From Escherichia phage APECc02, in sequence record NC_041869.1: DNA of 64,000 bases; one strand, given 5' to 3'. Within the stretch, counting starts at the first letter, position 1, and each line of letters opens with the position of its first letter. A model generated the notes under the pieces. That model was not told where the DNA came from, did not search any database, and saw only the letters and a list, made by a program, of their open reading frames with translations. Shown here piece after piece: positions 47,685 through 58,623 of this stretch. Position numbers and translations under genes: made by a program.

Positions 47685-47692
47685 CCTTTAAA

Positions 47693-47720
47693 GCCCCGCT
47701 TCGGCGGGGTTTATTTTTAT
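47693..47720 (+). terminator. rho-independent terminator
   Basis: gccccgc-ttcg-gcggggt hairpin plus T-rich run. Confidence 0.8.
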
Positions 47721-47727
47721 GCTCAGA

Positions 47728-47756
47728 TTGACTATTGTTACAAAATTTGGTAAAAT
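47728..47756 (+). promoter_or_regulatory. sigma70-like promoter (TTGACT-N17-TAAAAT)
   Basis: Near-consensus hexamers with TGG upstream of the -10. Confidence 0.55.
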
Positions 47757-47789
47757 ACCTTGTAGAGATTTTCATACCGGAGGAGTGAC

Positions 47790-49280
47790 GTGGCTAAGTA
47801 TGGATTGACAGAGGCTGGTTTCGTTATACCAACCCTAAATGACCTAATCGTTGAAACTAAGCAAAGCCTGATCCGTGCTTTTGGCGAAAACTTCAACGTA
47901 CAGAGTAACTCCGTTGCAGATAAGCTGACCACTATCTTCAACGAGCGAGAGTATCAACTTATTCTTATGGCAGCATCTGTATACGCATCACAGACGCTGT
48001 ATGGGGCAGAAGGTATTTATCTGGATGAGCTTCTTGGAAGACAGGGTATTTACCGAAGAGGCCGTTCTAAATCATCAGGTACCTGCCAGTTGACGATCAA
48101 CACAACTGTGCCGTACAATATGATTTATGATTCCAAAACTTATACGCTGGATAGTGGCAACTTTGTTCTTAGCAATGATGTGCAAGTGGCAGGGAATCTT
48201 ATTGCTCACAGAATAAATGCTCCAGACCTGAGGATTGGTAAATACAACTTTCAAATTACCAACCAGACAGATGGAAGTATCAAAACAAAAAGTTTGGTTT
48301 TAACAGATAAGGCTCTGGACTCTTCTGATCTGCCAAGCTTTTACGGAGAGATTAAGCAATTCATTGTCGATAATACAACCCTGTTGAACGACGATTTGAT
48401 TCAGATCGATATGTTGACAGGAACGTTGTGGATAGGGTACAATTCGAATCTTGATCAAGTTGGACTTAATAGTAGGGTAGATTTCAGAGTATCCCCGATT
48501 GTAGGGGAAAGAACTATCACCCTGGATGTTATCGCTAACGAGGCTGGTGAGCTGTCAAGAGAGGCAGAAACCGTGACAACAATGTCACCTACTCCCAGTG
48601 GATTTATCAAGCTTACCAACAGAGAAAGATTCAATGAGGGCAGGGATGTTGAGAAAGACTCAGAGTATCGCTTAAGAGCTTCCAGCACAAAACAGTTAAC
48701 ATCTAAGGCTACCCGTCCTGCAATCCTTAGCGCTGTAAGCGAGGTGAAAGGTGTTGAGAAAGTGAGAGTGTTCTCTAACAATACCGATAAAACTGATGCT
48801 AAAGGTATACCTCCTTACAAGTTCCAAGTGGTTGTGTTTGGTGGTGCAACGGAGGACATTTGCCAAGCACTTTACCAAACTATAGCCTGTACGAACAGGA
48901 CTTATGGTAATATTTTCTACGATGTCACTACATCTGACGGTCAAACTGAAAGAATTTATTACTCCAAGGCAAATACCTACCGCTTGGATGTAAGAATTAC
49001 CTACTCCGGTGCTGCGCTTTCCACAACCGAAAAAGATGCCATTGTAGAGGCTCTTTTGCAGGTTGTTAACGGACTGGATGTTGCAGATACGTTATACAAT
49101 ATCCAATTGGTCGGTGCTGCATCCGCTGCTGTGTCAATAGGCAGATTTAATAGACTGGTAATTCAAGTTAAATCCGTAGGAGCTTCTGATGAAGCTTACA
49201 CTACAAACGATATTGTTGCGAACATGACCGAGGTGTTTGACCTCGACGAAAGTAATATAACTTTCCAACAAACTATTTAA
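47790..49280 (+). CDS. hypothetical baseplate wedge protein (possibly J-like)
   Basis: 496 aa, GTG start with GGAGG RBS; assignment from size and position upstream of the fibre genes only. Confidence 0.4.
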   Translation: MAKYGLTEAGFVIPTLNDLIVETKQSLIRAFGENFNVQSNSVADKLTTIFNEREYQLILMAASVYASQTLYGAEGIYLDELLGRQGIYRRGRSKSSGTCQLTINTTVPYNMIYDSKTYTLDSGNFVLSNDVQVAGNLIAHRINAPDLRIGKYNFQITNQTDGSIKTKSLVLTDKALDSSDLPSFYGEIKQFIVDNTTLLNDDLIQIDMLTGTLWIGYNSNLDQVGLNSRVDFRVSPIVGERTITLDVIANEAGELSREAETVTTMSPTPSGFIKLTNRERFNEGRDVEKDSEYRLRASSTKQLTSKATRPAILSAVSEVKGVEKVRVFSNNTDKTDAKGIPPYKFQVVVFGGATEDICQALYQTIACTNRTYGNIFYDVTTSDGQTERIYYSKANTYRLDVRITYSGAALSTTEKDAIVEALLQVVNGLDVADTLYNIQLVGAASAAVSIGRFNRLVIQVKSVGASDEAYTTNDIVANMTEVFDLDESNITFQQTI

Positions 49281-49291
49281 GGCGGCGAGAT

Positions 49292-49978
49292 ATGGCAGAG
49301 ATTAAGTCGGATGTTAACCACATCCACACTCTGCCAGATTTTGTTCAGGGGGGTCTTGACTACCTGCCTGGAGATTTTCTGGCTGAGAAGGTTAATTTAG
49401 TCACATTCTTAACCGTATACCTTAAAAGGTTGGAGGATGTTGATAAGATGCTGGTAGGTTTGGCTGAAGGAAGATTGCTTAACAATGCCAGCGGAAGATA
49501 CCTTGACGAAGTTGGTAATCAACTTGGTATTCTTAGGAATGGACTTTCAGATGCTGATTTTCGTGCCACACTAATTATTCAGCAGGCCGCAGCATCAAGG
49601 GGCGGGACTCGCGAAGATGTCATCTCCACCTTGCGACAATTGTTCGGAAGAGACAATTTCGATACGTGGAAAGGAGACAACTTCAGGTTTGACATAAATA
49701 TTAGAAAAACTTGCTTTGACATATTGCAGTCTATAGATCAGATCTTAGATATGCTACCATTGCCTTGTCATTTGCGTCTTACAGAATCGCAAGGGCAAGC
49801 TTTTGGTTTTGAAGGGGACTCTACAGCTCTTGGCTTCGGATCAGTGTGGGAAGAAAACCAATTCGGAGTTGGTGGGCTGGCTACTTTGCTATATGTTCCT
49901 GACGTAAGACCTGATTGGGACACCACAACCATTTATTGTGAAAGTATTACAGTAAACGCAACTAGACAGGAGGGTTAA
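49292..49978 (+). CDS. hypothetical baseplate protein
   Basis: 228-aa ORF; stop overlaps the next start. Confidence 0.4.
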   Translation: MAEIKSDVNHIHTLPDFVQGGLDYLPGDFLAEKVNLVTFLTVYLKRLEDVDKMLVGLAEGRLLNNASGRYLDEVGNQLGILRNGLSDADFRATLIIQQAAASRGGTREDVISTLRQLFGRDNFDTWKGDNFRFDINIRKTCFDILQSIDQILDMLPLPCHLRLTESQGQAFGFEGDSTALGFGSVWEENQFGVGGLATLLYVPDVRPDWDTTTIYCESITVNATRQEG

Positions 49979-52050
49979 TGGCAACAGCTGTTTTTAAACC
50001 TTACCGTGATTACTCTACAATGGCTGCACAGTTTCACTACCGAACAGTTCAGGATACTGCCGTTCCTGGTAGGGATTATAATCATGTTGAGGGCGATGTA
50101 ACTATCCCAATTGGGGCAACCAGTATTGAGATCCCCGTGGAAATTGTTGACAAATTACCCAACAGGTTACCAAGAAGCTTCTTTATGGAGTTTTCATCAA
50201 AATCTCAAGGGGTGATGATTGGGACACAAAGGGCGAAATGTACAATAGTTTCAGATGAGAATCTTGACAGGATATCCTGGGATACTGTTGAGGAGAGAAT
50301 GTTTCACCCAAGATATTGGGTTACAACCACTCAGCAGACTGAAAGTACCTGTATTGTTGCAGATGACAACTGTTGTATTAACCGTTTAGTGTCAAGAACA
50401 TATGGAGGTATGGCTGGGTGCATTTGGGAAACAGTTGACAAGTATGACCATTTCGGTATTGGGTTTGATGATCACTATGAGATGAGAAACACCAAGCTTT
50501 GGTTCAGAATGTCAATAACCAATGCCAGCAACTTCTCCACTCCTGAAAAGATGATTATGACTGTAGACCTTGTTGATGGCACAATCATCTATGTTCCTTT
50601 AGCTCAATATGCTGTCAGCATCTCAGAGGATAAGAATGTTGCAGAGATTCATATTGATTTCGAGGACTGCGTCGGGATGGATCAGAACAACAACATGATG
50701 GGTGTTGATCCTCGGCAGGTGAGAAGGATTTTAATACCGCTTATGCCTAAAGACTGGGTAAGTAATAGCACAGACCCGAGAACGGAAAATGTAGAGTGTG
50801 AGTTGCGCCTAGATCTGCTTCAGCCAGACACGGGCTGGAAAATGATGCAACTTAACAATATTCAGGTTAAAGAGCACGACGTCGGGATCTGCACCGCATA
50901 TGACGATATGTGGAACGTATCTCCTTTAAGGGTGTTGAACAATATCAAGCGTCTGGGCTATACCGGAACCATAAACCACTATGTTGGTATGAGTCATTAT
51001 TATGACTACACATGGTCAGGAACCCAATGGTCTATAAACAGAACAGGGGCGCTAAACGCTGCAGCTTATAAATGGCATGATGATTTTATGTACAATGCCA
51101 AACGACACAACTTCGACGTTATGCAGTCTGTAAGTTTTGAGCTTTACAGCGATGCCTGTCCGTTGGAATGGACCCAAAGAGACTGGAACGATAACTACGC
51201 TAAAACAGGGTATACACCTTGTAGCTACCTCCTGTCTCCAACCATTGAAGAGGGTATGAATTTCCTTACGGCAGTATTTAAGAATTTTGCATCAGCCGCT
51301 ATGAGAAACAACCTGCCAGTGATTATGCAGGTTGGTGAACCGTGGTGGTGGTTCAATACCGATACTCGTAGACCTTGTATTTATGATTACCCTACAAAAC
51401 AGGCGTTTTATGATGAGACAGGTGAGTATGCATTAGATATTGGGACTATTGACGATCCTAAAACTGGCGGTGTTTACGACAAGTATGTAGCATTTTGTCG
51501 TGGTAAGCTTGGCGCTCGTATTGCGGCTATTTCAAAGGCAATAAAGGCACACGCTGCATCAGCTCAGATGACAGCTTTACTGTTTTTCCCAACTATTATG
51601 GAAACCGAGCTTACGCAAAAGCTGAACCTTGCCGACCAATATAAAAAAGAAGCAGGTGCTCTTGATTTCTTCTGCACCGAGTGCTACGATTGGGTGATGC
51701 AGGGAGGTATTGAAAAGGCAAAAGAGTCTGTAAACATACCTATCGTTAAGTTAGGTTGGCAACCGTCTGAAATACAATACCTTGCAGGGTTCGTTCCTAG
51801 TAAAGAGCTTGCTCCGGTATATGGCTACGACCCAACCAGGAATTACCAAGAATTTTTATGGAGATGTATTTGCGGAAACATGGCAACTATAGAGTATAGA
51901 TATCCTGAGGTAAAACAGTATGTGTGGGCATACCCGCAAGTAATGTCTGACAGCATCACTGTTACCGCTAGAGATTCTACCGTGCTTCATATGGGGCAGG
52001 TTGCTCTGAAAGGGTATGTAGAAGATGTTGTCCCGCCAGACTTCTCATAA
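49978..52050 (+). CDS. large tail protein, possible glycoside-hydrolase-like domain
   Basis: 690 aa; Trp-rich segment MQVGEPWWWFNTD reminiscent of TIM-barrel glycosidase active-site regions. Speculative. Confidence 0.4.
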   Translation: MATAVFKPYRDYSTMAAQFHYRTVQDTAVPGRDYNHVEGDVTIPIGATSIEIPVEIVDKLPNRLPRSFFMEFSSKSQGVMIGTQRAKCTIVSDENLDRISWDTVEERMFHPRYWVTTTQQTESTCIVADDNCCINRLVSRTYGGMAGCIWETVDKYDHFGIGFDDHYEMRNTKLWFRMSITNASNFSTPEKMIMTVDLVDGTIIYVPLAQYAVSISEDKNVAEIHIDFEDCVGMDQNNNMMGVDPRQVRRILIPLMPKDWVSNSTDPRTENVECELRLDLLQPDTGWKMMQLNNIQVKEHDVGICTAYDDMWNVSPLRVLNNIKRLGYTGTINHYVGMSHYYDYTWSGTQWSINRTGALNAAAYKWHDDFMYNAKRHNFDVMQSVSFELYSDACPLEWTQRDWNDNYAKTGYTPCSYLLSPTIEEGMNFLTAVFKNFASAAMRNNLPVIMQVGEPWWWFNTDTRRPCIYDYPTKQAFYDETGEYALDIGTIDDPKTGGVYDKYVAFCRGKLGARIAAISKAIKAHAASAQMTALLFFPTIMETELTQKLNLADQYKKEAGALDFFCTECYDWVMQGGIEKAKESVNIPIVKLGWQPSEIQYLAGFVPSKELAPVYGYDPTRNYQEFLWRCICGNMATIEYRYPEVKQYVWAYPQVMSDSITVTARDSTVLHMGQVALKGYVEDVVPPDFS

Positions 52051-52062
52051 TCAGGAGATAAA

Positions 52063-53103
52063 ATGTCAAAACCTAGTTTTCCATTAGAGATTTGGGCAGA
52101 GGAGGATCAGGTTCTGCCTAACACCCACAGACAGAACAGGCTACGCCCGATTGATGATTTGTGGAGAAAAGGTTGGGATCTTGGTCAAAAGCCCTCATGT
52201 GAAGAACTTAACTATATTTTCAATATGCTCGGGACTTGGGCAAAATACATTGCTGACGAGCAGATCCCCGCTCAAGAAGGCCGTTATCTGGTACGTGATA
52301 ATAACTTGAGCGATCTTTTGAACATCCCTGTTGCCCGTAGAAACCTTGGGATTATCACTAAGGAAGAGGCAGACGCCAGGTATGTAAAAGTTACAGGTGA
52401 TACAATGACAGGCCCCTTGGGGTTGCAACGTATCAACTTTAAAGCTGCCGAGACAGATAAGGCTTGGATAGAGACAACTATTGGCCCAGATAAGACAACT
52501 CTCGACTTTGGGTTAAGTGATAATACCGGGTCGTTTGATGATGGTGGTACATCTACAGTGGATGCGTTCCGTTGGAGATTCCAGCCAACTCAGCCGGATA
52601 TTAATCCAGAGTTCACTTTGATGTACCTTAACGCGATCACGGCTAACCGTGCGCTGTTGAAAGTGGTAGGCAATGTTGAAGTTGTCGATAACATGAGGTG
52701 CAATAACCTTACTATCAGCAATACAGCGACATTCACCAACTGTAATGTGGCTAGTCAGTTGACGGCTGGGTCAGTGTATGTTAATGGTGGTGCAAGTTGT
52801 GACAGTATGGTTGTAAGAAGCCAGCACTGTGTTGTCGGTAACAGAAATGTGGTTCGCTCTGTGAACGGAGTGACGGCTAACGGTAACGGTGATGTAACGA
52901 TCACTATCCCGCAGACAGGTGTGCAAGACATCAGAATCGGTGCAAGACTTGTGGACGGAGTTTCTGAATCTCCAATCCGCAACGGCTACGTTGTCACAGG
53001 CTGGCATTTCGGTGACAAAAAAGAGATGCGTGGTTCAACCTACTGGGCAGGACCTTTACAAAAACTTGTAAATGGTCAATGGATCACTGTTAATTATGCA
53101 TAG
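52063..53103 (+). CDS. tail fibre protein (paralogue 1)
   Basis: 346 aa; collar-like motif ARRNLGI...EADARYV...GDTMTGPL; C-terminus YWAGPLQKLVNGQWITVNYA; followed by a Tfa-type chaperone gene. Confidence 0.7.
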   Translation: MSKPSFPLEIWAEEDQVLPNTHRQNRLRPIDDLWRKGWDLGQKPSCEELNYIFNMLGTWAKYIADEQIPAQEGRYLVRDNNLSDLLNIPVARRNLGIITKEEADARYVKVTGDTMTGPLGLQRINFKAAETDKAWIETTIGPDKTTLDFGLSDNTGSFDDGGTSTVDAFRWRFQPTQPDINPEFTLMYLNAITANRALLKVVGNVEVVDNMRCNNLTISNTATFTNCNVASQLTAGSVYVNGGASCDSMVVRSQHCVVGNRNVVRSVNGVTANGNGDVTITIPQTGVQDIRIGARLVDGVSESPIRNGYVVTGWHFGDKKEMRGSTYWAGPLQKLVNGQWITVNYA

Positions 53104-53117
53104 ATCGGAGGACTAGC

Positions 53118-53702
53118 ATGAAAATACTTCAAGAGTTTAAACTTTACCAACCGGGATCTGGCGAATACCGCACCAACAAGGAAACCAAGGAGCTGACCCC
53201 TCAAGAGGTTGAGGATTACACAGCATACACTGGGTATTTTTTACGTAATGATGATGGCGATTGGTATGTGCAGTCACGAACATTGCGACAAGAAAATCCG
53301 GGTTGTATCTTCCTACTTGTTGACGAGAAGGGAATTCTTAAGACATCTACAGAAGAACCTGATGCCTTATGGCCTGCTCCAGGTCTTCGTGTGGTTATCG
53401 CCAAAAAAGAAGAGGTACCAGAAAACATTATGCTTCACCACGACGCTTTGCGTTTAGTTGGTGATGAATTTGTCACAGATAATGAATTCTTTGTTCAACA
53501 GGCAGAGGGTGTCATAGAGACAGAACTTGCTTGGGCTACTGCTAGAATTGGTGCCTATCAAGACGTGATTGACCTTGAATATGATCTTACTGATGACCAG
53601 AAACGTAACATCAGAGATTTGAAAATGTACAGGGTAAAACTTCTTGAAATAGATACATCTAAAGCCCCTGACATTTTCTTCCCGGAGCGACCTACCCTCT
53701 AA
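53118..53702 (+). CDS. tail fibre assembly chaperone (Tfa-like)
   Basis: 194 aa; C-terminal LAWATARIGAYQDVIDLEYDLTDDQKRNIRDLKMYRVKLLEIDTSKAPDIFFPERP matches the conserved Tfa C-terminal domain pattern. Confidence 0.7.
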   Translation: MKILQEFKLYQPGSGEYRTNKETKELTPQEVEDYTAYTGYFLRNDDGDWYVQSRTLRQENPGCIFLLVDEKGILKTSTEEPDALWPAPGLRVVIAKKEEVPENIMLHHDALRLVGDEFVTDNEFFVQQAEGVIETELAWATARIGAYQDVIDLEYDLTDDQKRNIRDLKMYRVKLLEIDTSKAPDIFFPERPTL

Positions 53703-53713
53703 GAGGAGGTGTT

Positions 53714-54028
53714 GTGGAGTTGGATTTGGCGGCATTGTACGGTATCTGCATGGGTACCGTTGTCCCGATCTGTGTATGGGCTTTCAACCAGTGGCACACC
53801 AAATGGAAAGGCATTTCCAAGAGGTTGGATGAACTGGAGAAAGACCTCATCTTAGTGAAAAACAGTATGGTTACAAAAGATAAACTTGATTCCGTTATCG
53901 AGACCCGGTTAAGCAAGCTAGAGGCCGATATTAACGACCTTAAGCAGGATGTCAGGACAGATGTCTCCGGTATCCGAGCTGATGTACAAAAGATTTTGCA
54001 CATGCTCGTAGAGCATAGTAAAAGGTAA
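53714..54028 (+). CDS. small membrane protein with coiled-coil
   Basis: 104 aa; N-terminal hydrophobic segment (LAALYGICMGTVVPICVWAF) then heptad-like charged sequence. Confidence 0.45.
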   Translation: MELDLAALYGICMGTVVPICVWAFNQWHTKWKGISKRLDELEKDLILVKNSMVTKDKLDSVIETRLSKLEADINDLKQDVRTDVSGIRADVQKILHMLVEHSKR

Positions 54029-54038
54029 ACAAAGGTCA

Positions 54039-54068
54039 GAACGGAAAGGACTCCGTTCTTGCATTTTG
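54039..54068 (+). terminator. putative terminator
   Basis: gaacgga/tccgttc hairpin followed by a T-rich stretch. Confidence 0.55.
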
Positions 54069-54087
54069 TTCTCTAAAGTGTTAAAAT
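54059..54087 (+). promoter_or_regulatory. putative promoter (TTGCAT-N17-TAAAAT)
   Basis: Overlaps the terminator tail; upstream of the second fibre paralogue. Confidence 0.45.
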
Positions 54088-54117
54088 AGTCCTAAGGAAT
54101 TTTCTCAGGAGAACGCG

Positions 54118-55161
54118 ATGACTAAACCAGTTATCCCTCTTGATATTTGGGCCAATCAGGATGTTGTGCTTGAAAATACGGGAGAGTTGAATAAGTCTCA
54201 ACCAAAAAAAGAAGAGAGATTGAAAGGTTGGGATATGGCACAAAGAGTGGCATGTGAAGTTGTTAACTTTGAACTTCACATGCTTTCTGCGTGGTTAAAG
54301 CATCTAACAGAAGATGTTGTCCCAGGATGGGATAATAGATTCTTAAGGGTCACTAATAATCTAGCAGACGTTCCAGACAAAGCTGCTGCACGTCAAGTTC
54401 TCAATGTATACTCGCCTGAAGAAATGGACGATTTGTATGTTGACAAGTCTGGAGACATAATGACTCAGACTCAAACTTTAGGTCTTCAAAGAATCGAGTT
54501 TGCATCTGCGTCAACAGACAATGCGGCAATATATACCACCATAACTCCAGACAAGACGACGATGGATTTCTGGATTATGGACAACATCGGTGGTGCTGAC
54601 GGCACAGACCTTGATGATCCTTCTCACCAAATAGACGGGTTCCGTTGGAGATTTCAACCTTCTGGTGGGCAGCCTGTGTTTTCGGCTATGAAGCTCAATG
54701 CTATAACTGCCAACCGTGCAAGACTGGCCATCCAAGGAAATCTTGAATGCAACGATGCAAAAAGTTCCTCTGCAAATGCCAATGCGGTCACGATACCAAG
54801 AGCCACTGTTAACGGACAACAATCCTGCGGAAGCGCTCAAATAGGTGGAAGAGTTGATTGTAACGATGAAACAGTCAGGGGTCAATATGCAACAGTTGGT
54901 GGAAGAAACGTGGTCCGCAGGGTAAATGGTAACGGCGCAGACAGTAGTGGTAACCTTACTATCCCTATGCCCAGCAGAGGGGTTGATGATGTAAGGATAG
55001 CAAACCGTTTCAAAACCACCTACAGAGAGTCAAGAGTCTACCCTGGACATGTGATGTGCTCTGGTAACTACGCTTATAAACACCCTTATCAAGGTGATTA
55101 CTGGACAGGTGCTATCCAAAAACTTGTAAATGGTCAATGGATCACTATATCTTATGCTTAA
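54118..55161 (+). CDS. tail fibre protein (paralogue 2)
   Basis: 347 aa; N-terminus and C-terminus (YWTGAIQKLVNGQWITISYA) parallel 52063-53103, central region diverged. Confidence 0.7.
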   Translation: MTKPVIPLDIWANQDVVLENTGELNKSQPKKEERLKGWDMAQRVACEVVNFELHMLSAWLKHLTEDVVPGWDNRFLRVTNNLADVPDKAAARQVLNVYSPEEMDDLYVDKSGDIMTQTQTLGLQRIEFASASTDNAAIYTTITPDKTTMDFWIMDNIGGADGTDLDDPSHQIDGFRWRFQPSGGQPVFSAMKLNAITANRARLAIQGNLECNDAKSSSANANAVTIPRATVNGQQSCGSAQIGGRVDCNDETVRGQYATVGGRNVVRRVNGNGADSSGNLTIPMPSRGVDDVRIANRFKTTYRESRVYPGHVMCSGNYAYKHPYQGDYWTGAIQKLVNGQWITISYA

Positions 55162-55172
55162 AAAGAGGGTAA

Positions 55173-55439
55173 ATGAAACTAACTCAGTTTTTATGGGGAC
55201 TGGTTGCGGCATCTGATGACCCTACGAAAGTGTCCCAAACTAAGCTATGGTCGAACATAGGCATGGCGGTGATGACTGGGGTGTTTATTCATATGGGGTA
55301 TAATGATACGCTTCCTGAATGGTATGCGTGGATATACGCGCCTTCAGTAGCTTGCCCCCAGCTTATTAGCAAATTCATCTCGCTCCGGTGGGGTTGCCAG
55401 CACCCTGACCACGTTAAAAACGAAGAGCAAAAAGCTTAA
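55173..55439 (+). CDS. small hydrophobic protein
   Basis: 88 aa with two hydrophobic stretches (FLWGLVAA; IGMAVMTGVFIHMG). Confidence 0.4.
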   Translation: MKLTQFLWGLVAASDDPTKVSQTKLWSNIGMAVMTGVFIHMGYNDTLPEWYAWIYAPSVACPQLISKFISLRWGCQHPDHVKNEEQKA

Positions 55440-55448
55440 GGAGAAATC

Positions 55449-57209
55449 ATGGCGCAAGACATGACAAGCTTTGAGCAGGCGGTAGATCAAGTAATTGTTG
55501 ATTCTGAACGTTTGCACTTGGTTGTCAACGGTAACGCTGTGGATGAAGTTGTCGTAGAGGATGGGACCACCATCCCTACGGTACGAAAAGCCATGCTTGA
55601 CAACCTTTATTTTAAAACGCCACCGATCCCTTGGGCGTATGGTGCATCCACAACAGTTTTTAACCAGCTGTACGAGTTTAAAGGGGACACAGGCCCTCAG
55701 TGGTGGTACGCTCCCGCAGCATCAAAATCTAACCCGGTTAGAATGCCAGCAGATCCTTCACAATCTCCAAACTGGAGATTATATACCGACTCTGCAGTAA
55801 TGGCAAAATACTACGCAAAACTTAACAGCCCGAGGTTCGAAGGTGACCCACGAGTACCTACACCTCCAATGGACGATAAGTCAGAGTCCATAGCAAACAC
55901 AGAGTTTGTTGTTGACTATGTTGATAGCATATTTAAAGCCATGGAGGGGATGAAAGTTACTGTAGGGTCTTTGGTGGTAAAAGGTCTTACAGAACTCGCT
56001 AACACTATAGTTGGTGGCACCCTTACCTTACATGGACCTGTTAATGGGGCAGATTCTACTGCACGCTTTAGGAATCTAATCCTCACGGCAAATACTTCTA
56101 CACTTACTTTTGCGTGGAGCGATCCTAAGCATGCAGACTGGAGAAGTACAGAGCTGCAACCTCATGAAGTGTCCACCCACAGGGTTATAGCTGACAGGGT
56201 TATAGCTGACACTATAACTTCTGGGAAACCAGTGGCTAATAATAACGATGTGCATTTTGATGGTCTGGGTAATAACTTTTTTGACTACGTGTACATTCGT
56301 GGTAATGCCATGAAGGCAGCAACCGAACCGACATTGCAGGTCGATGGGACCACCAGGGTTAAGAACCTTGAGGTGACAGGTACCGTTACAGGGATAACAT
56401 ACTCTGTCGATGGCACCATGATCTACCCTAGCTATATTGAAAGCACGGGTGATGCATTGATAAATGGCGATTTGGAGGTTGGCGGGTCTGTAGTTATTCG
56501 AGGTACAGCCTCTATCCAAAATATAGCTCTGAATACTCTAAGAGTCAATGAGCGTGCAACTTTTGAAGGAGAAGGGCTTACAGCCAATAAAGGTACAATT
56601 ACCGAGCTAACCACCACCACTTTAACTGCAACAACTGCAAACTCTGAAAACTGCAACATTACCAGAAACTTGCAGGTAAATGGAGATGTTAGTTTAAACG
56701 CCGCAGGGACTGGCACCACCCACCTTCACAACCTTGAAATATCCGGCACAGTGACCGGGTGGCTGCCAGACTTCTCTAATGTCAACTTTGTCTGTAATGG
56801 CATTAACTCCAGTGGTAAGATAACCACCTCTCAAGAAATTGAGGCGGGTAAAACCATTACTGCCCCTACTTTCCACGCAGGAAAGGTAGATTTTGACTTA
56901 GAGGAGGTTGACGCGTCCAGTGGGACATGGACACCTAACGGGCAGGCCAGCATGTATGTTGTCCACGCGAAAGGGGATTTTACAATAGGACAGTGGCCTG
57001 GGACATCAGCGGAAGATAAACCTTATCCATTCACTGCAGTTATCTATGTCATTCAGGATGCTGTAGGTCACAACGTGACTTTGCACGATAAGTATGCTAT
57101 CCTGTCGGCAACACCTGTTATTAACAACAAGGCTAACAGTGTTACCTTGCTGCAATTAACGTATTGTGGTGTTGGTGATATTGTAGACGTAGTAATTGCA
57201 CAACGTTAA
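55449..57209 (+). CDS. tail fibre / tailspike-like protein
   Basis: 586 aa; N-terminal motif SPRFEGDPRVPTPPMDDKSESIANTEFV, repetitive Thr/Gly/Asn-rich beta-type segments. Confidence 0.55.
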   Translation: MAQDMTSFEQAVDQVIVDSERLHLVVNGNAVDEVVVEDGTTIPTVRKAMLDNLYFKTPPIPWAYGASTTVFNQLYEFKGDTGPQWWYAPAASKSNPVRMPADPSQSPNWRLYTDSAVMAKYYAKLNSPRFEGDPRVPTPPMDDKSESIANTEFVVDYVDSIFKAMEGMKVTVGSLVVKGLTELANTIVGGTLTLHGPVNGADSTARFRNLILTANTSTLTFAWSDPKHADWRSTELQPHEVSTHRVIADRVIADTITSGKPVANNNDVHFDGLGNNFFDYVYIRGNAMKAATEPTLQVDGTTRVKNLEVTGTVTGITYSVDGTMIYPSYIESTGDALINGDLEVGGSVVIRGTASIQNIALNTLRVNERATFEGEGLTANKGTITELTTTTLTATTANSENCNITRNLQVNGDVSLNAAGTGTTHLHNLEISGTVTGWLPDFSNVNFVCNGINSSGKITTSQEIEAGKTITAPTFHAGKVDFDLEEVDASSGTWTPNGQASMYVVHAKGDFTIGQWPGTSAEDKPYPFTAVIYVIQDAVGHNVTLHDKYAILSATPVINNKANSVTLLQLTYCGVGDIVDVVIAQR

Positions 57210-57218
57210 TATATCTAA

Positions 57219-57243
57219 CCGCTCCTGACGGGGCGGTTTTCTT
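57219..57243 (+). terminator. rho-independent terminator
   Basis: ccgctcc-tgac-ggggcgg hairpin plus TTTT. Confidence 0.65.
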
Positions 57244-57257
57244 ATCTGGAGAACACA

Positions 57258-58623
57258 ATGCTTCCAATCCCTTTGCTAAAACTTGGTCGTCATTTCCTCG
57301 ATAAGAGGGGTGGAATTAAGGAACTTGCTGTTCTGTCATACCCAATAGACAACAGTGATGGTACAAGCAACACAGTATCCTATGTAAATAGCTTAGCTAT
57401 ACTTTTTGATGATGGTCAGCTTAATATTACTGGCTATAATAGGTTCGGAGAGTGTCGGACTGGAGATCTTGATACAATAAACTATCCTAATGAGGCAGCT
57501 TGGAACGTAGACCATGTTTGGAGAGCTGACCGTGCATTTGTAATCCGCACATTCGATAATAAATTTTTCTATATTGGTTGCACAGCTGGTCTTATCGGGA
57601 TCGGAGGCAGCAGGTGGAAACGATGTTTGTGTCAGAGAGTGGGCACCTTTGCCGGAACAGATCGTAACAGGGTTGCATTTGGACACCCATCCTGAGAGAC
57701 TTGTTGAAGTAATGGGTGGCGTAAACAATACAGTGTGGGTAATTGCTGCACCAGAGGCTGATGGTATGCTTCACCTGTACGGCTCTGGCAATAATACTTA
57801 CGGCTCTCTTCATGTTGACAAAAGTCAACACGCTACTCCAGTTAAGATCGGTGAAACATCTGAAAGTCCAGAGACAGGTCCTTGGAAAAATCCAAGAATT
57901 AATTGTGAAGTTCATGACAACTCGGTTATTTTTGGTGGTCCTAACGGATTCTGGATTGCAGGTTACGATTTCTTAAGAAATAACAGCAAAAACACACTAG
58001 TTTATCCAGCCGAGCATGTGACTCTTGACCAGTTTAAAGGCATCCCGGTGGGCGAGACATGGAAAGGGTTCATGTGTGGACCTAATGGTGCAATTATAGC
58101 CACAGAAAGGATGCACAAACCTGATGACCAACAGCTTGTTAATGTGTTTTATGGTCAGGATGTTTGGGGTGACGACACGTGGAGAAGCCTTAACATCACC
58201 TATACCCATGAAGTAATTATGGCTCGCGGGTACGGGACTAGTGGAATTTTCTTCAATAATGGTACAAAACAGTACCGTGGTTTCTCCAGAAACCTGTGTA
58301 ACGATATTGGTGCTCAATCTGCTAATAATAGTCCTAGGGCCAATTTTATTCATTACAGAGCGCTGGCAACAGCTAAGTTTGTTGAACAGACAGAGCCAGT
58401 AAGCTGGACAGAAAGCGTTTATTTTCAAGGGATCCACAGGGAAGGTTTCTTAGGCACATTCTGTGTGGTAAATGGAAAGCTTTGGTGGTCAGGAATACCA
58501 CGTGGTAGTTTTTCAGGATCTAATAACCTCTTTAGCGGCAGACTTAACAGCCAAGGGTTGCTAAAGTTTTCTCAGGTATTAAATGGAATCTACCTGTCCA
58601 AAGTATTTCATGGAAGCAAATAG
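57258..58623 (+). pseudogene. RCC1-like repeat protein gene, reading frame disrupted by a +1 change near 57606-57620
   Basis: ATG 57258 with GGAG RBS. Frame 0 carries repeat-like GYNRFGECRTGD and FFYIGCTAGLIGIGG then stops at 57695; frame +1 is open from 57562 and continues the same repeat type (LHLYGSGNNTYGSLHV) to 58623. Confidence 0.45.

Follow-up and report, generated by a model that had tools for sequence, protein, structure and literature searches.

Short tail fibres of rV5-like phages and their relatives

Paired short tail fibres served by a single chaperone are known from Escherichia phage rV5 (Escherichia phage V5, NC_011041), in which gp30 shares 42.3% identity with gp33 and recognition of two chemotypes of lipopolysaccharide (LPS) was suggested (Kropinski et al., 2013; PMC3606486). 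The Vequintavirus members of the BASEL collection (e.g., MaxBurger bas54_0035, 0036 and 0038) were likewise described as having two paralogous short tail fibres and one chaperone with little allelic variation, the proteins sharing homology with the one short fibre that phi92-like phages carry and, ultimately, with Mu GpS/GpU (Maffei et al., 2021; PMC8594841). Here, the corresponding locus of Escherichia phage APECc02 (sequence record NC_041869.1) is analysed within a stretch of 64,000 nucleotides (nt), hereafter the window, whose positions are used throughout. Its fibre genes lie between positions 52,063 and 55,161 and flank a Tfa-type chaperone gene; genes and order are the same as for gp33, gp32 and gp30 of rV5 and for the BASEL pair. 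The gp33 homolog is termed fibre 1 and the gp30 homolog fibre 2.

Fibres of this family have been seen on phage baseplates. In a 2026 cryo-electron microscopy study of phi92, gp147 was identified as the downward-pointing 'fiber III', present as six trimers on the wedge and proposed to act in irreversible adsorption; that paper does not discuss chaperones or the rV5 paralogs. Both fibres of the window are full-length homologs of gp147. Like fibre 1, gp147 and the BASEL Justusliebigvirus short fibre have the same docking domain and tip class, and gp147 is followed by a Tfa (gp148) and a small transmembrane protein; unlike the window fibres, gp147 is a single copy, and its shaft is just ~23–29% identical. 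In phiTE, the in situ model of residues 3–92 of the short tail fibre shows a trimeric joint attached to wedge 1 (PMC11972413). The phiTE fibre (PDB 9cuy/9mjn) is homologous to the window fibres over its N-terminal 100 amino acids (aa) and ends in the same QK.VNG.W.T motif, but it is a 554-aa single-copy protein that includes a coiled coil and Ig-like domains, and phiTE itself is flagellotropic and LPS-independent.

The tip and chaperone are of the Mu type. Mu GpS/GpU and S'/U' (5yvq) share with the window the homology of shaft and tip, the framework motifs of the tip and Tfa homology nearly end to end, and the Mu receptor also lies in the LPS core. However, inversion of the G segment in Mu selects which of two alternative tips is expressed, on a shared constant N-terminus and with a separate Tfa for each tip, whereas the window has two complete fibre genes with different N-termini, both with late promoters, and one Tfa. 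T4 gp12 is a functional analogue, being a baseplate fibre that binds irreversibly to the LPS core, although its chaperone is gp57A and not a Tfa. A similarity to gp12 by HHpred has been reported for rV5 (Kropinski et al., 2013; PMC3606486); no gp12 chain was found among the phmmer matches (E ≤ 1) or Foldseek matches of either fibre.

Two paralogous fibres with a three-part build

The locus encodes two paralogous rV5-type short tail fibres (gp33 and gp30 homologs) and a single Mu GpU-type chaperone (gp32), which probably act in the following roles. Both fibres consist of a wedge-docking N-terminal domain of ~100 aa, a Mu GpS-like shaft and a Mu GpS-type tip formed by the last ~60 aa. As trimers docked on the baseplate wedge, they would effect irreversible adsorption on the LPS core, in which glucose I is the known terminal receptor; fibre 1 would bind glucose I and fibre 2 would read another or an extra core epitope. 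One Tfa would fold both tips by acting on their shared framework. The conserved C-terminal strand would belong to this framework and not to specificity, and it would be held identical in DNA by short-patch gene conversion in the lineage of the window.

The pair with its one chaperone had been described before, in a genus that is very well sampled, and is real but ordinary. The window is that of an rV5-like Vequintavirus, another member of the genus without material difference from the rV5 and BASEL pair, and its 9-kb region at 49000–58000 is 98–99% identical to more than 100 such phages, including SophiaRose, FFH2, rV5 and the BASEL isolates. New here are the replacement of a gene slot by fibre 2, the late transcription unit of its own, two remodelled tip loops, a tip shared by both fibres in a sister clade, and conversion at the 3' ends.

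The sequence-only reading that preceded this analysis had the two open reading frames, their coordinates and their lengths of 346 and 347 aa right (Table 1). The phrog_4465 profile spans 1–342 of 342 positions in both proteins (E 1.8e-171 for fibre 1, 6.2e-166 for fibre 2), and both are intact in ~115 genomes, with identities of 98.8–100% and 95.4–99.7%, respectively. The fibres align with each other end to end at 43% identity (BLASTP, E 9e-95), a similarity well above what chance would give. A sliding-window profile places the strongest blocks centrally (aa 111–160, 55–70%; aa 191–210, 65%; aa 261–290, 60–65%) and the weakest at aa 51–100, 211–260 and 300–330. This profile rules out the proposed pattern of conserved ends around a divergent middle, since the best-conserved blocks lie in the middle.

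The N-terminal domain of fibre 1 matches residues 1–111 of the phiTE short tail fibre (9cuy_c; phmmer, E 1.4e-19), and aa 1–83 of fibre 2 match the same chain at E 8e-10. Residues P4, W11, A12, L18, N25, P29, G37, D39, E47, N50 and W59, invariant in the family, are kept in both paralogs. The N-terminus had been called collar-like; a Pfam search at E ≤ 0.01 found neither Collar (PF07484) nor any other family in either fibre, PF07484 being borne by a few distant members of the fibre family, and the likeness is to the phiTE docking domain. Between paralogs the docking domains are 30–45% identical, and they form two stable classes in all three two-fibre lineages described below, with identities between orthologs across lineages of 77–83% for fibre 1 and 57–63% for fibre 2. 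Two stable classes suggest two docking sites, as far as sequence can tell.

The shaft relates to Mu through the profile of the fibre family, which aligns with Mu S residues 150–255 (hhalign, probability 97%, E 1.1e-10). In fibre 1, the tip aligns with residues 440–501 of Mu GpS (5yvq_A; phmmer, E 1.7e-6), and the fibre 2 tip has no match to Mu GpS by sequence alone at E < 1 (phmmer). By Foldseek, the models of both fibres match 5yvq_A at E 5e-7 each, the GpS-chaperone complex being the sole significant PDB match, with the fibre 2 model of low confidence. In the AlphaFold2 monomer models (pLDDT 68 and 61), both fibres show the same secondary-structure layout; given their low to moderate confidence, the models were left out of loop-level inference.

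The tip is framed by V.D[IV]R.G at its start, ~60 residues upstream, and by Q..[VI]NG.W.T at its end. Within this frame the two tips of the window are identical at 27 of 61 positions, with two loops remodelled in fibre 2. Fibre 1 has its tip class, TGWxFGDKKExRG, in common with Av-05 and the phi92-like fibres, and identity to the phi92-like tip is 35/62 for fibre 1 and 20/62 for fibre 2. As judged from sequence conservation, both tips are under strong purifying selection: between the window and the related lineage L009 they are 93–100% identical, the shafts 63–90%, and the last 30 aa of fibre 2 are conserved at 100%. The earlier statement that the two proteins are alike in their final 20 residues stands (15 of 20 match, including a run of 10 identical residues, QKLVNGQWIT), but as a private mark of the pair, or a special link between the two genes, this motif is ruled out. 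In the form [LI]Q..[VI][ND]G.W.T it is family-wide, with Q333, G338, W340 and T342 invariant, and it recurs in phiTE, Mu S and Mu S'. Proteins with the same N-terminus bear at least three different tips. Because the motif is family-wide and frames an exchangeable tip, it is best regarded as a structural element of the Mu-type tip.

The Tfa chaperone

A Tfa-type chaperone gene following the first fibre only had been noted from the sequence, and this is confirmed by Caudo_TAP (PF02413, E 1.3e-11) and phrog_136 (E 7e-36); no Tfa gene follows fibre 2. The Tfa family aligns with Mu U almost end to end (hhalign, probability 98.5%, E 3.7e-15), while a PDB search with the single Tfa sequence gave chance matches only. 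Furthermore, each of 244 phage records (244/244) showed one Tfa-like place and no more in a tblastn search, so that two-fibre genomes have one Tfa, and the idea of one chaperone is supported genomically. In the North 2019 model (summarised in PMC9608196), the part of Tfa that binds the tip is its variable N-terminal domain, and conserved C-terminal helices drive trimerisation.

Most likely, one Tfa serves both fibres through the shared tip framework. This is suggested by three features taken together: both tips keep the framework, both are under purifying selection, and both have changed jointly where the Tfa has diverged, in the clade of lineage L007. There, the Tfa is 46–47% identical to that of the window and both fibres bear one shared tip. 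As a separate observation, the Tfa proteins of all two-fibre lineages (194–208 aa) have an insertion of 20–28 aa near the N-terminus, in the tip-binding half according to the Mu model; those of single-fibre genera (159–183 aa) are without it.

Age of the duplication and gene order in relatives

The fibre 1 and fibre 2 genes are ~50% identical in DNA, with synonymous codons randomised. Identity of fibre 1 is 51% to the single fibre of Av-05, 47% to that of GAP31, 46% to that of VIK251 and 44% to fibre 2, while fibre 2 is 36–39% identical to the same single fibres. Database searches yielded two further divergent two-fibre lineages, L009 (fibre 1 87% and fibre 2 78% identical to the window) and L007 (73% and 49%). 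In a tree built without the tip, the fibre 1 clade and the fibre 2 clade each received 100% bootstrap support and each extended across both lineage types. The DNA divergence, these identities and the paralog clades thus indicate that the duplication is old and that fibre 2 is the faster-evolving copy.

Gene order in relatives completes the comparison. In single-fibre genera the order is fibre, Tfa, 104-aa gene, a 157-aa multi-pass membrane gene (PF26221), ~88-aa gene and lateral fibre; in all two-fibre lineages, fibre 2 fills the slot of the 157-aa gene. Of the 107 phage records with that gene, none is of the rV5 type, and neither tblastn nor a profile search found a remnant of it in the gap before fibre 2 or anywhere in the window. 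Fibre 1 lies directly 3' of the wedge and non-contractile tail sheath protein (NCTSP) genes and directly 5' of Tfa, while fibre 2 lies 3' of the 104-aa gene and comes first in the next unit, neither adjacent to the wedge genes nor directly before Tfa. Judged by position and sequence comparison, fibre 1 is the copy in the ancestral place within the wedge operon and fibre 2 is the extra paralog.

A search for recombination breakpoints in relatives had been proposed, and one was found in the L007 clade. The tips of its two paralogs are identical at 54 of 61 aa and at 77–84% of nt, against ~50% elsewhere, and the breakpoint lies at the GVQDIR boundary. L007 (Logan SRR24653873) together with L014, L016 and L021 (IMG/VR 3300045988) makes up a well-populated, apparently uncultured rV5-type sister clade, for which no match at 60–90% identity came up in the phage-genome collection. 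Septuagintavirus was considered as the L007-type lineage and ruled out, its fibre being of the phiTE type (phrog_12846).

Gene conversion at the 3' ends

The codons for QKLVNGQWIT form a 30-nt word, CAAAAACTTGTAAATGGTCAATGGATCACT, that is exactly identical in the two genes; given the same peptide, the probability that all 10 codons match is 1.4e-4. In L009, the two copies of the word are 1 nt apart, and both have CTG, GTC and CAG where both copies of the window have CTT, GTA and CAA. As the L009 paralogs share three synonymous changes, the paralogs change together, which points to short-patch gene conversion. Among IMG/VR contigs, the copies differ at 0, 2 or 4 positions in the rV5 type and at 7–9 positions, in an orthologous pattern, in the L007 type, so that conversion appears episodic and lineage-specific. 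Across the whole gene, 203 sites group the orthologs together and 22 group the paralogs. A quartet test detected a cluster of three paralogs-together sites which, against a background of ~1 per 20 codons, is not compelling alone; the claim of conversion rests on the exact 30-mer, the derived synonymous changes shared in L009, and the extra contigs.

Receptors and presence in the virion

Glucose I of the LPS core is the receptor for phage LL12, and also for 18 phages of Vequintavirus and 8 of Justusliebigvirus. Since one-fibre Justusliebigvirus and two-fibre Vequintavirus phages both use glucose I and share a tip class, fibre 1 is the better candidate and likely binds it. Fibre 2 would probably recognise another epitope of the core or an extra one. 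Two receptor specificities, as the sequence-only reading had proposed, are plausible in the lineage of the window because the tips share so few residues and differ in two remodelled loops.

Several observations weigh against this assignment of roles. The pair with the same tip in L007 weakens two specificities as a general rationale, and a second specificity therefore cannot alone account for the presence of two fibres. Mu has a Tfa of its own for each alternative tip, so that a single Tfa shared by two classes of tip departs from the usual arrangement. The monomer models are of limited confidence, and their TM-scores to Mu GpS are low (0.17–0.18). No study separating the roles of gp30 and gp33 was found in the literature. 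Finally, the deposited Table S5 of the rV5 study (PMC3606486), with 19 loci, is without gp30, gp32 and gp33, and none of its peptides occur in the fibres or Tfa.

The main text of the same study lists gp30, gp32, gp33, gp36, gp42, gp43, gp45 and gp49 as detected by proteomics (PMC3606486). Table S5 (Additional file 5) is likewise without gp36, gp42, gp43, gp45 and gp49; its loci are 61, 60, 53, 52, 133, 79, 152, 82, 34, 237, 41, 62, 235, 106, 37, 1, 27, 228 and one at ~18.5–19.1 kb of the window. In Table S3, '(MS evidence)' is given for gp34 and gp41 and not for gp30 or gp33. The mass-spectrometry run recovered 19 proteins only and missed most baseplate proteins too. Direct virion evidence for this fibre type comes from single-copy orthologs only.

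Transcription units and neighbouring genes

The window has five copies of the motif TGKTAAAATA where 0.48 would be expected, all of them on the + strand and in the structural-gene region (23844, 27365, 42477, 47748 and 54079), and several copies lie directly 3' of terminator-like hairpins. Copies after hairpins mark out late transcription units. The motif at 47748 likely starts a late unit that begins with the wedge genes, takes in fibre 1 and Tfa and extends to the 104-aa gene; the wedge proteins are encoded at 47790–49280 and 49292–49978. The gap of 89 nt before fibre 2 contains both a hairpin and a promoter-like motif. The hairpin (z = -3.64; none of 200 shuffles as stable), whose TTGCATTTT run is kept in L009 and L007, is likely the end of the fibre 1 unit. 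The motif, conserved in L009 and L007 as TGCTAAAATA, is identical in sequence to late promoter P030 listed before gene 30 in rV5 (Table S4; PMC3606486). With the hairpin and the conserved motif in this gap, one late unit finishes with fibre 1, Tfa and the 104-aa gene, and another begins with fibre 2 and likely ends at the terminator-like site after the lateral fibre gene.

Table 1. Features of the short tail fibre locus of Escherichia phage APECc02, in window positions
Feature	Position	Strand	Basis or remark
Terminator-like site upstream of TGGTAAAATA	47691-47712		
Late-promoter-like motif TGGTAAAATA, before wedge gene	47748-47757	+	TGKTAAAATA match; rV5 Table S4 equivalent is P036
Fibre 1, rV5 gp33 homolog, 346 aa	52063-53103	+	phrog_4465; 99.7% identical to gp33
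Fibre 1 predicted N-terminal baseplate (wedge) docking domain, aa 1-108	52063-52386	+	phmmer to 9cuy_c
Fibre 1 tip, Mu GpS type, aa 286-346, class TGWxFGDKKExRG	52918-53100	+	phmmer to 5yvq_A; alignments
30-nt word CAAAAACTTGTAAATGGTCAATGGATCACT, encoding QKLVNGQWIT	53059-53088 (fibre 1) and 55117-55146 (fibre 2)	+	Exact identity
Tfa, rV5 gp32 homolog, 194 aa, Mu GpU type	53118-53702	+	Pfam Caudo_TAP; hhalign to Mu U
104-aa protein, rV5 gp31 homolog	53714-54028	+	phrog_5345, E 1e-48; alignment; hydropathy
Terminator-like hairpin, then TGCATTTTGT	54038-54059	+	Fold -16 kcal/mol
Late-promoter-like motif TGTTAAAATA, 29 nt 5' of fibre 2 ATG	54079-54088	+	TGKTAAAATA match
Fibre 2, rV5 gp30 homolog, 347 aa	54118-55161	+	phrog_4465; ~99% identical to gp30
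Fibre 2 tip, aa 288-347, fibre 1 framework with two remodelled loops, KTTYR and CSGNYAYKHPYQG	54979-55158	+	Alignments
Small conserved protein of 88 aa (rV5 gp29 homolog), membrane protein by annotation	55173-55439	+	phrog_1322, E 1e-32; alignment
Lateral fibre gene, gp28-like	55449-57209		Downstream of 88-aa gene
Terminator-like site after gp28-like lateral fibre gene	57217-57238	+	

A small membrane gene between the fibres had been noted as well, and the 104-aa protein does have one hydrophobic segment, at its N-terminus (residues 3–24 by hydropathy); the gp31 entry of rV5 Table S3 reads '1 TMD' (PMC3606486). Its gene always comes next after Tfa in Vequintavirinae and phi92-like phages. The 88-aa protein showed no strong transmembrane window at a simple hydropathy threshold. 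A cassette of small proteins, namely the 104-aa, the 157-aa (PF26221, Phage_phiTE_239) and the ~88-aa (phrog_1322) proteins, always stands after Tfa across Vequintavirinae (L003 5638–6701, L004 5650–6719, L006 5536–6609; in the window, the two parts at 53714–54028 and 55173–55439). The rV5-type phages have it without the 157-aa member, and phi92-like phages retain the first, 104-aa member only.

Alternative explanations

That the second fibre was gained for the architecture of the baseplate and not for specificity is possible, if on the unlikely side. Two baseplate sites (e.g., 6 + 6) would then be filled by fibres that may bear the same tip, with receptors diverging optionally later, and the L007-type paralogs with their shared tip, the two docking classes stable in all three lineages, and the alternative fibres of Mu and P1, which instead share one constant N-terminus, all fit this explanation. 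However, the N-terminal residues invariant in the family are kept in both paralogs, so that both could fit the same site, and in phi92 and phiTE each wedge bears a single fibre of this kind. In another explanation, the two fibres would compete for the same six wedge sites, giving mixed or alternative virion sets as a form of bet-hedging without an invertible switch, in a ratio set by the fibre 2 promoter. Both proteins carry a docking domain of the same family, single-fibre relatives have one fibre per wedge, and the promoter of fibre 2 with its upstream terminator would permit a different dosage, but N-terminal domains of two distinct classes, just ~40% identical, are unexpected for one identical site, and we consider such competition improbable. 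An arrangement that joins all parts, with two wedge sites and twelve fibres against six in phi92, two LPS-core epitopes, one Tfa acting on the shared framework and conversion keeping the C-terminal strand in register, can be put forward only tentatively and would as a whole be unlikely. If true, this twelve-fibre, two-epitope arrangement would be an alternative, constitutive and without switching, to Mu's invertible S/S'-U/U' system.

The remaining explanations concern the second copy itself. Folding of fibre 2 independently of gp32, whether unaided or through host chaperones or another phage protein, would fit the position of its gene, which is not followed by a Tfa gene, the lack of a sequence match of its tip to Mu GpS at E < 1, and the separate Tfa for each tip in Mu. 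It is nevertheless doubtful, given that fibre 2 keeps the complete tip framework with a fold match to 5yvq_A equal to that of fibre 1, and that there is one Tfa per genome, with both tips changing together where Tfa diverges. That one of the copies is a remnant, without function or not part of the virion, is suggested by the absence of peptides of either fibre from the deposited rV5 mass-spectrometry table, yet with so few proteins recovered in that run, both genes intact in ~115 genomes, tips under strong purifying selection and a conserved fibre 2 promoter, we regard it as highly improbable. A recent tandem duplication that is still diverging, as the sequence-only reading had suggested, could be argued from the identical 30-nt word at the 3' ends, but the rest of the genes is at ~50% DNA identity with randomised codons, the paralog clades span deep lineages, and the word is explained by concerted evolution, with three synonymous changes shared in L009; it is ruled out for practical purposes.

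The rV5-like phages are among the commonest E. coli phage isolates and are used in therapy and biocontrol cocktails. Assigning to each short fibre the portion of the LPS core that it recognises would aid the prediction and engineering of host range and of routes to resistance. The slot replacement, the two docking classes, the exchangeable tips, the shared tip of the sister clade and the short-patch conversion offer handles for such experiments.

Further observations

Upstream of fibre 1, positions 49978–52050 encode a 690-aa protein with Calx-beta, NCTSP_N and TIM-barrel 'non-contractile tail sheath protein' (PF23845, E 1e-79) domains; the BASEL annotation describes it as a lateral fibre with a deacetylase domain, tied to the ECA/NGR glycan receptor. 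Seventeen GenBank records named 'Campylobacter phage' (MG0656xx, host Campylobacter jejuni) are 98–99% identical to window 49000–58000 and probably represent E. coli phages that were carried over or given a wrong label. The sign of the GC skew flips at ~9 kb and ~60 kb of the window, which is consistent with switches in transcription direction that border a long block of + strand structural genes.

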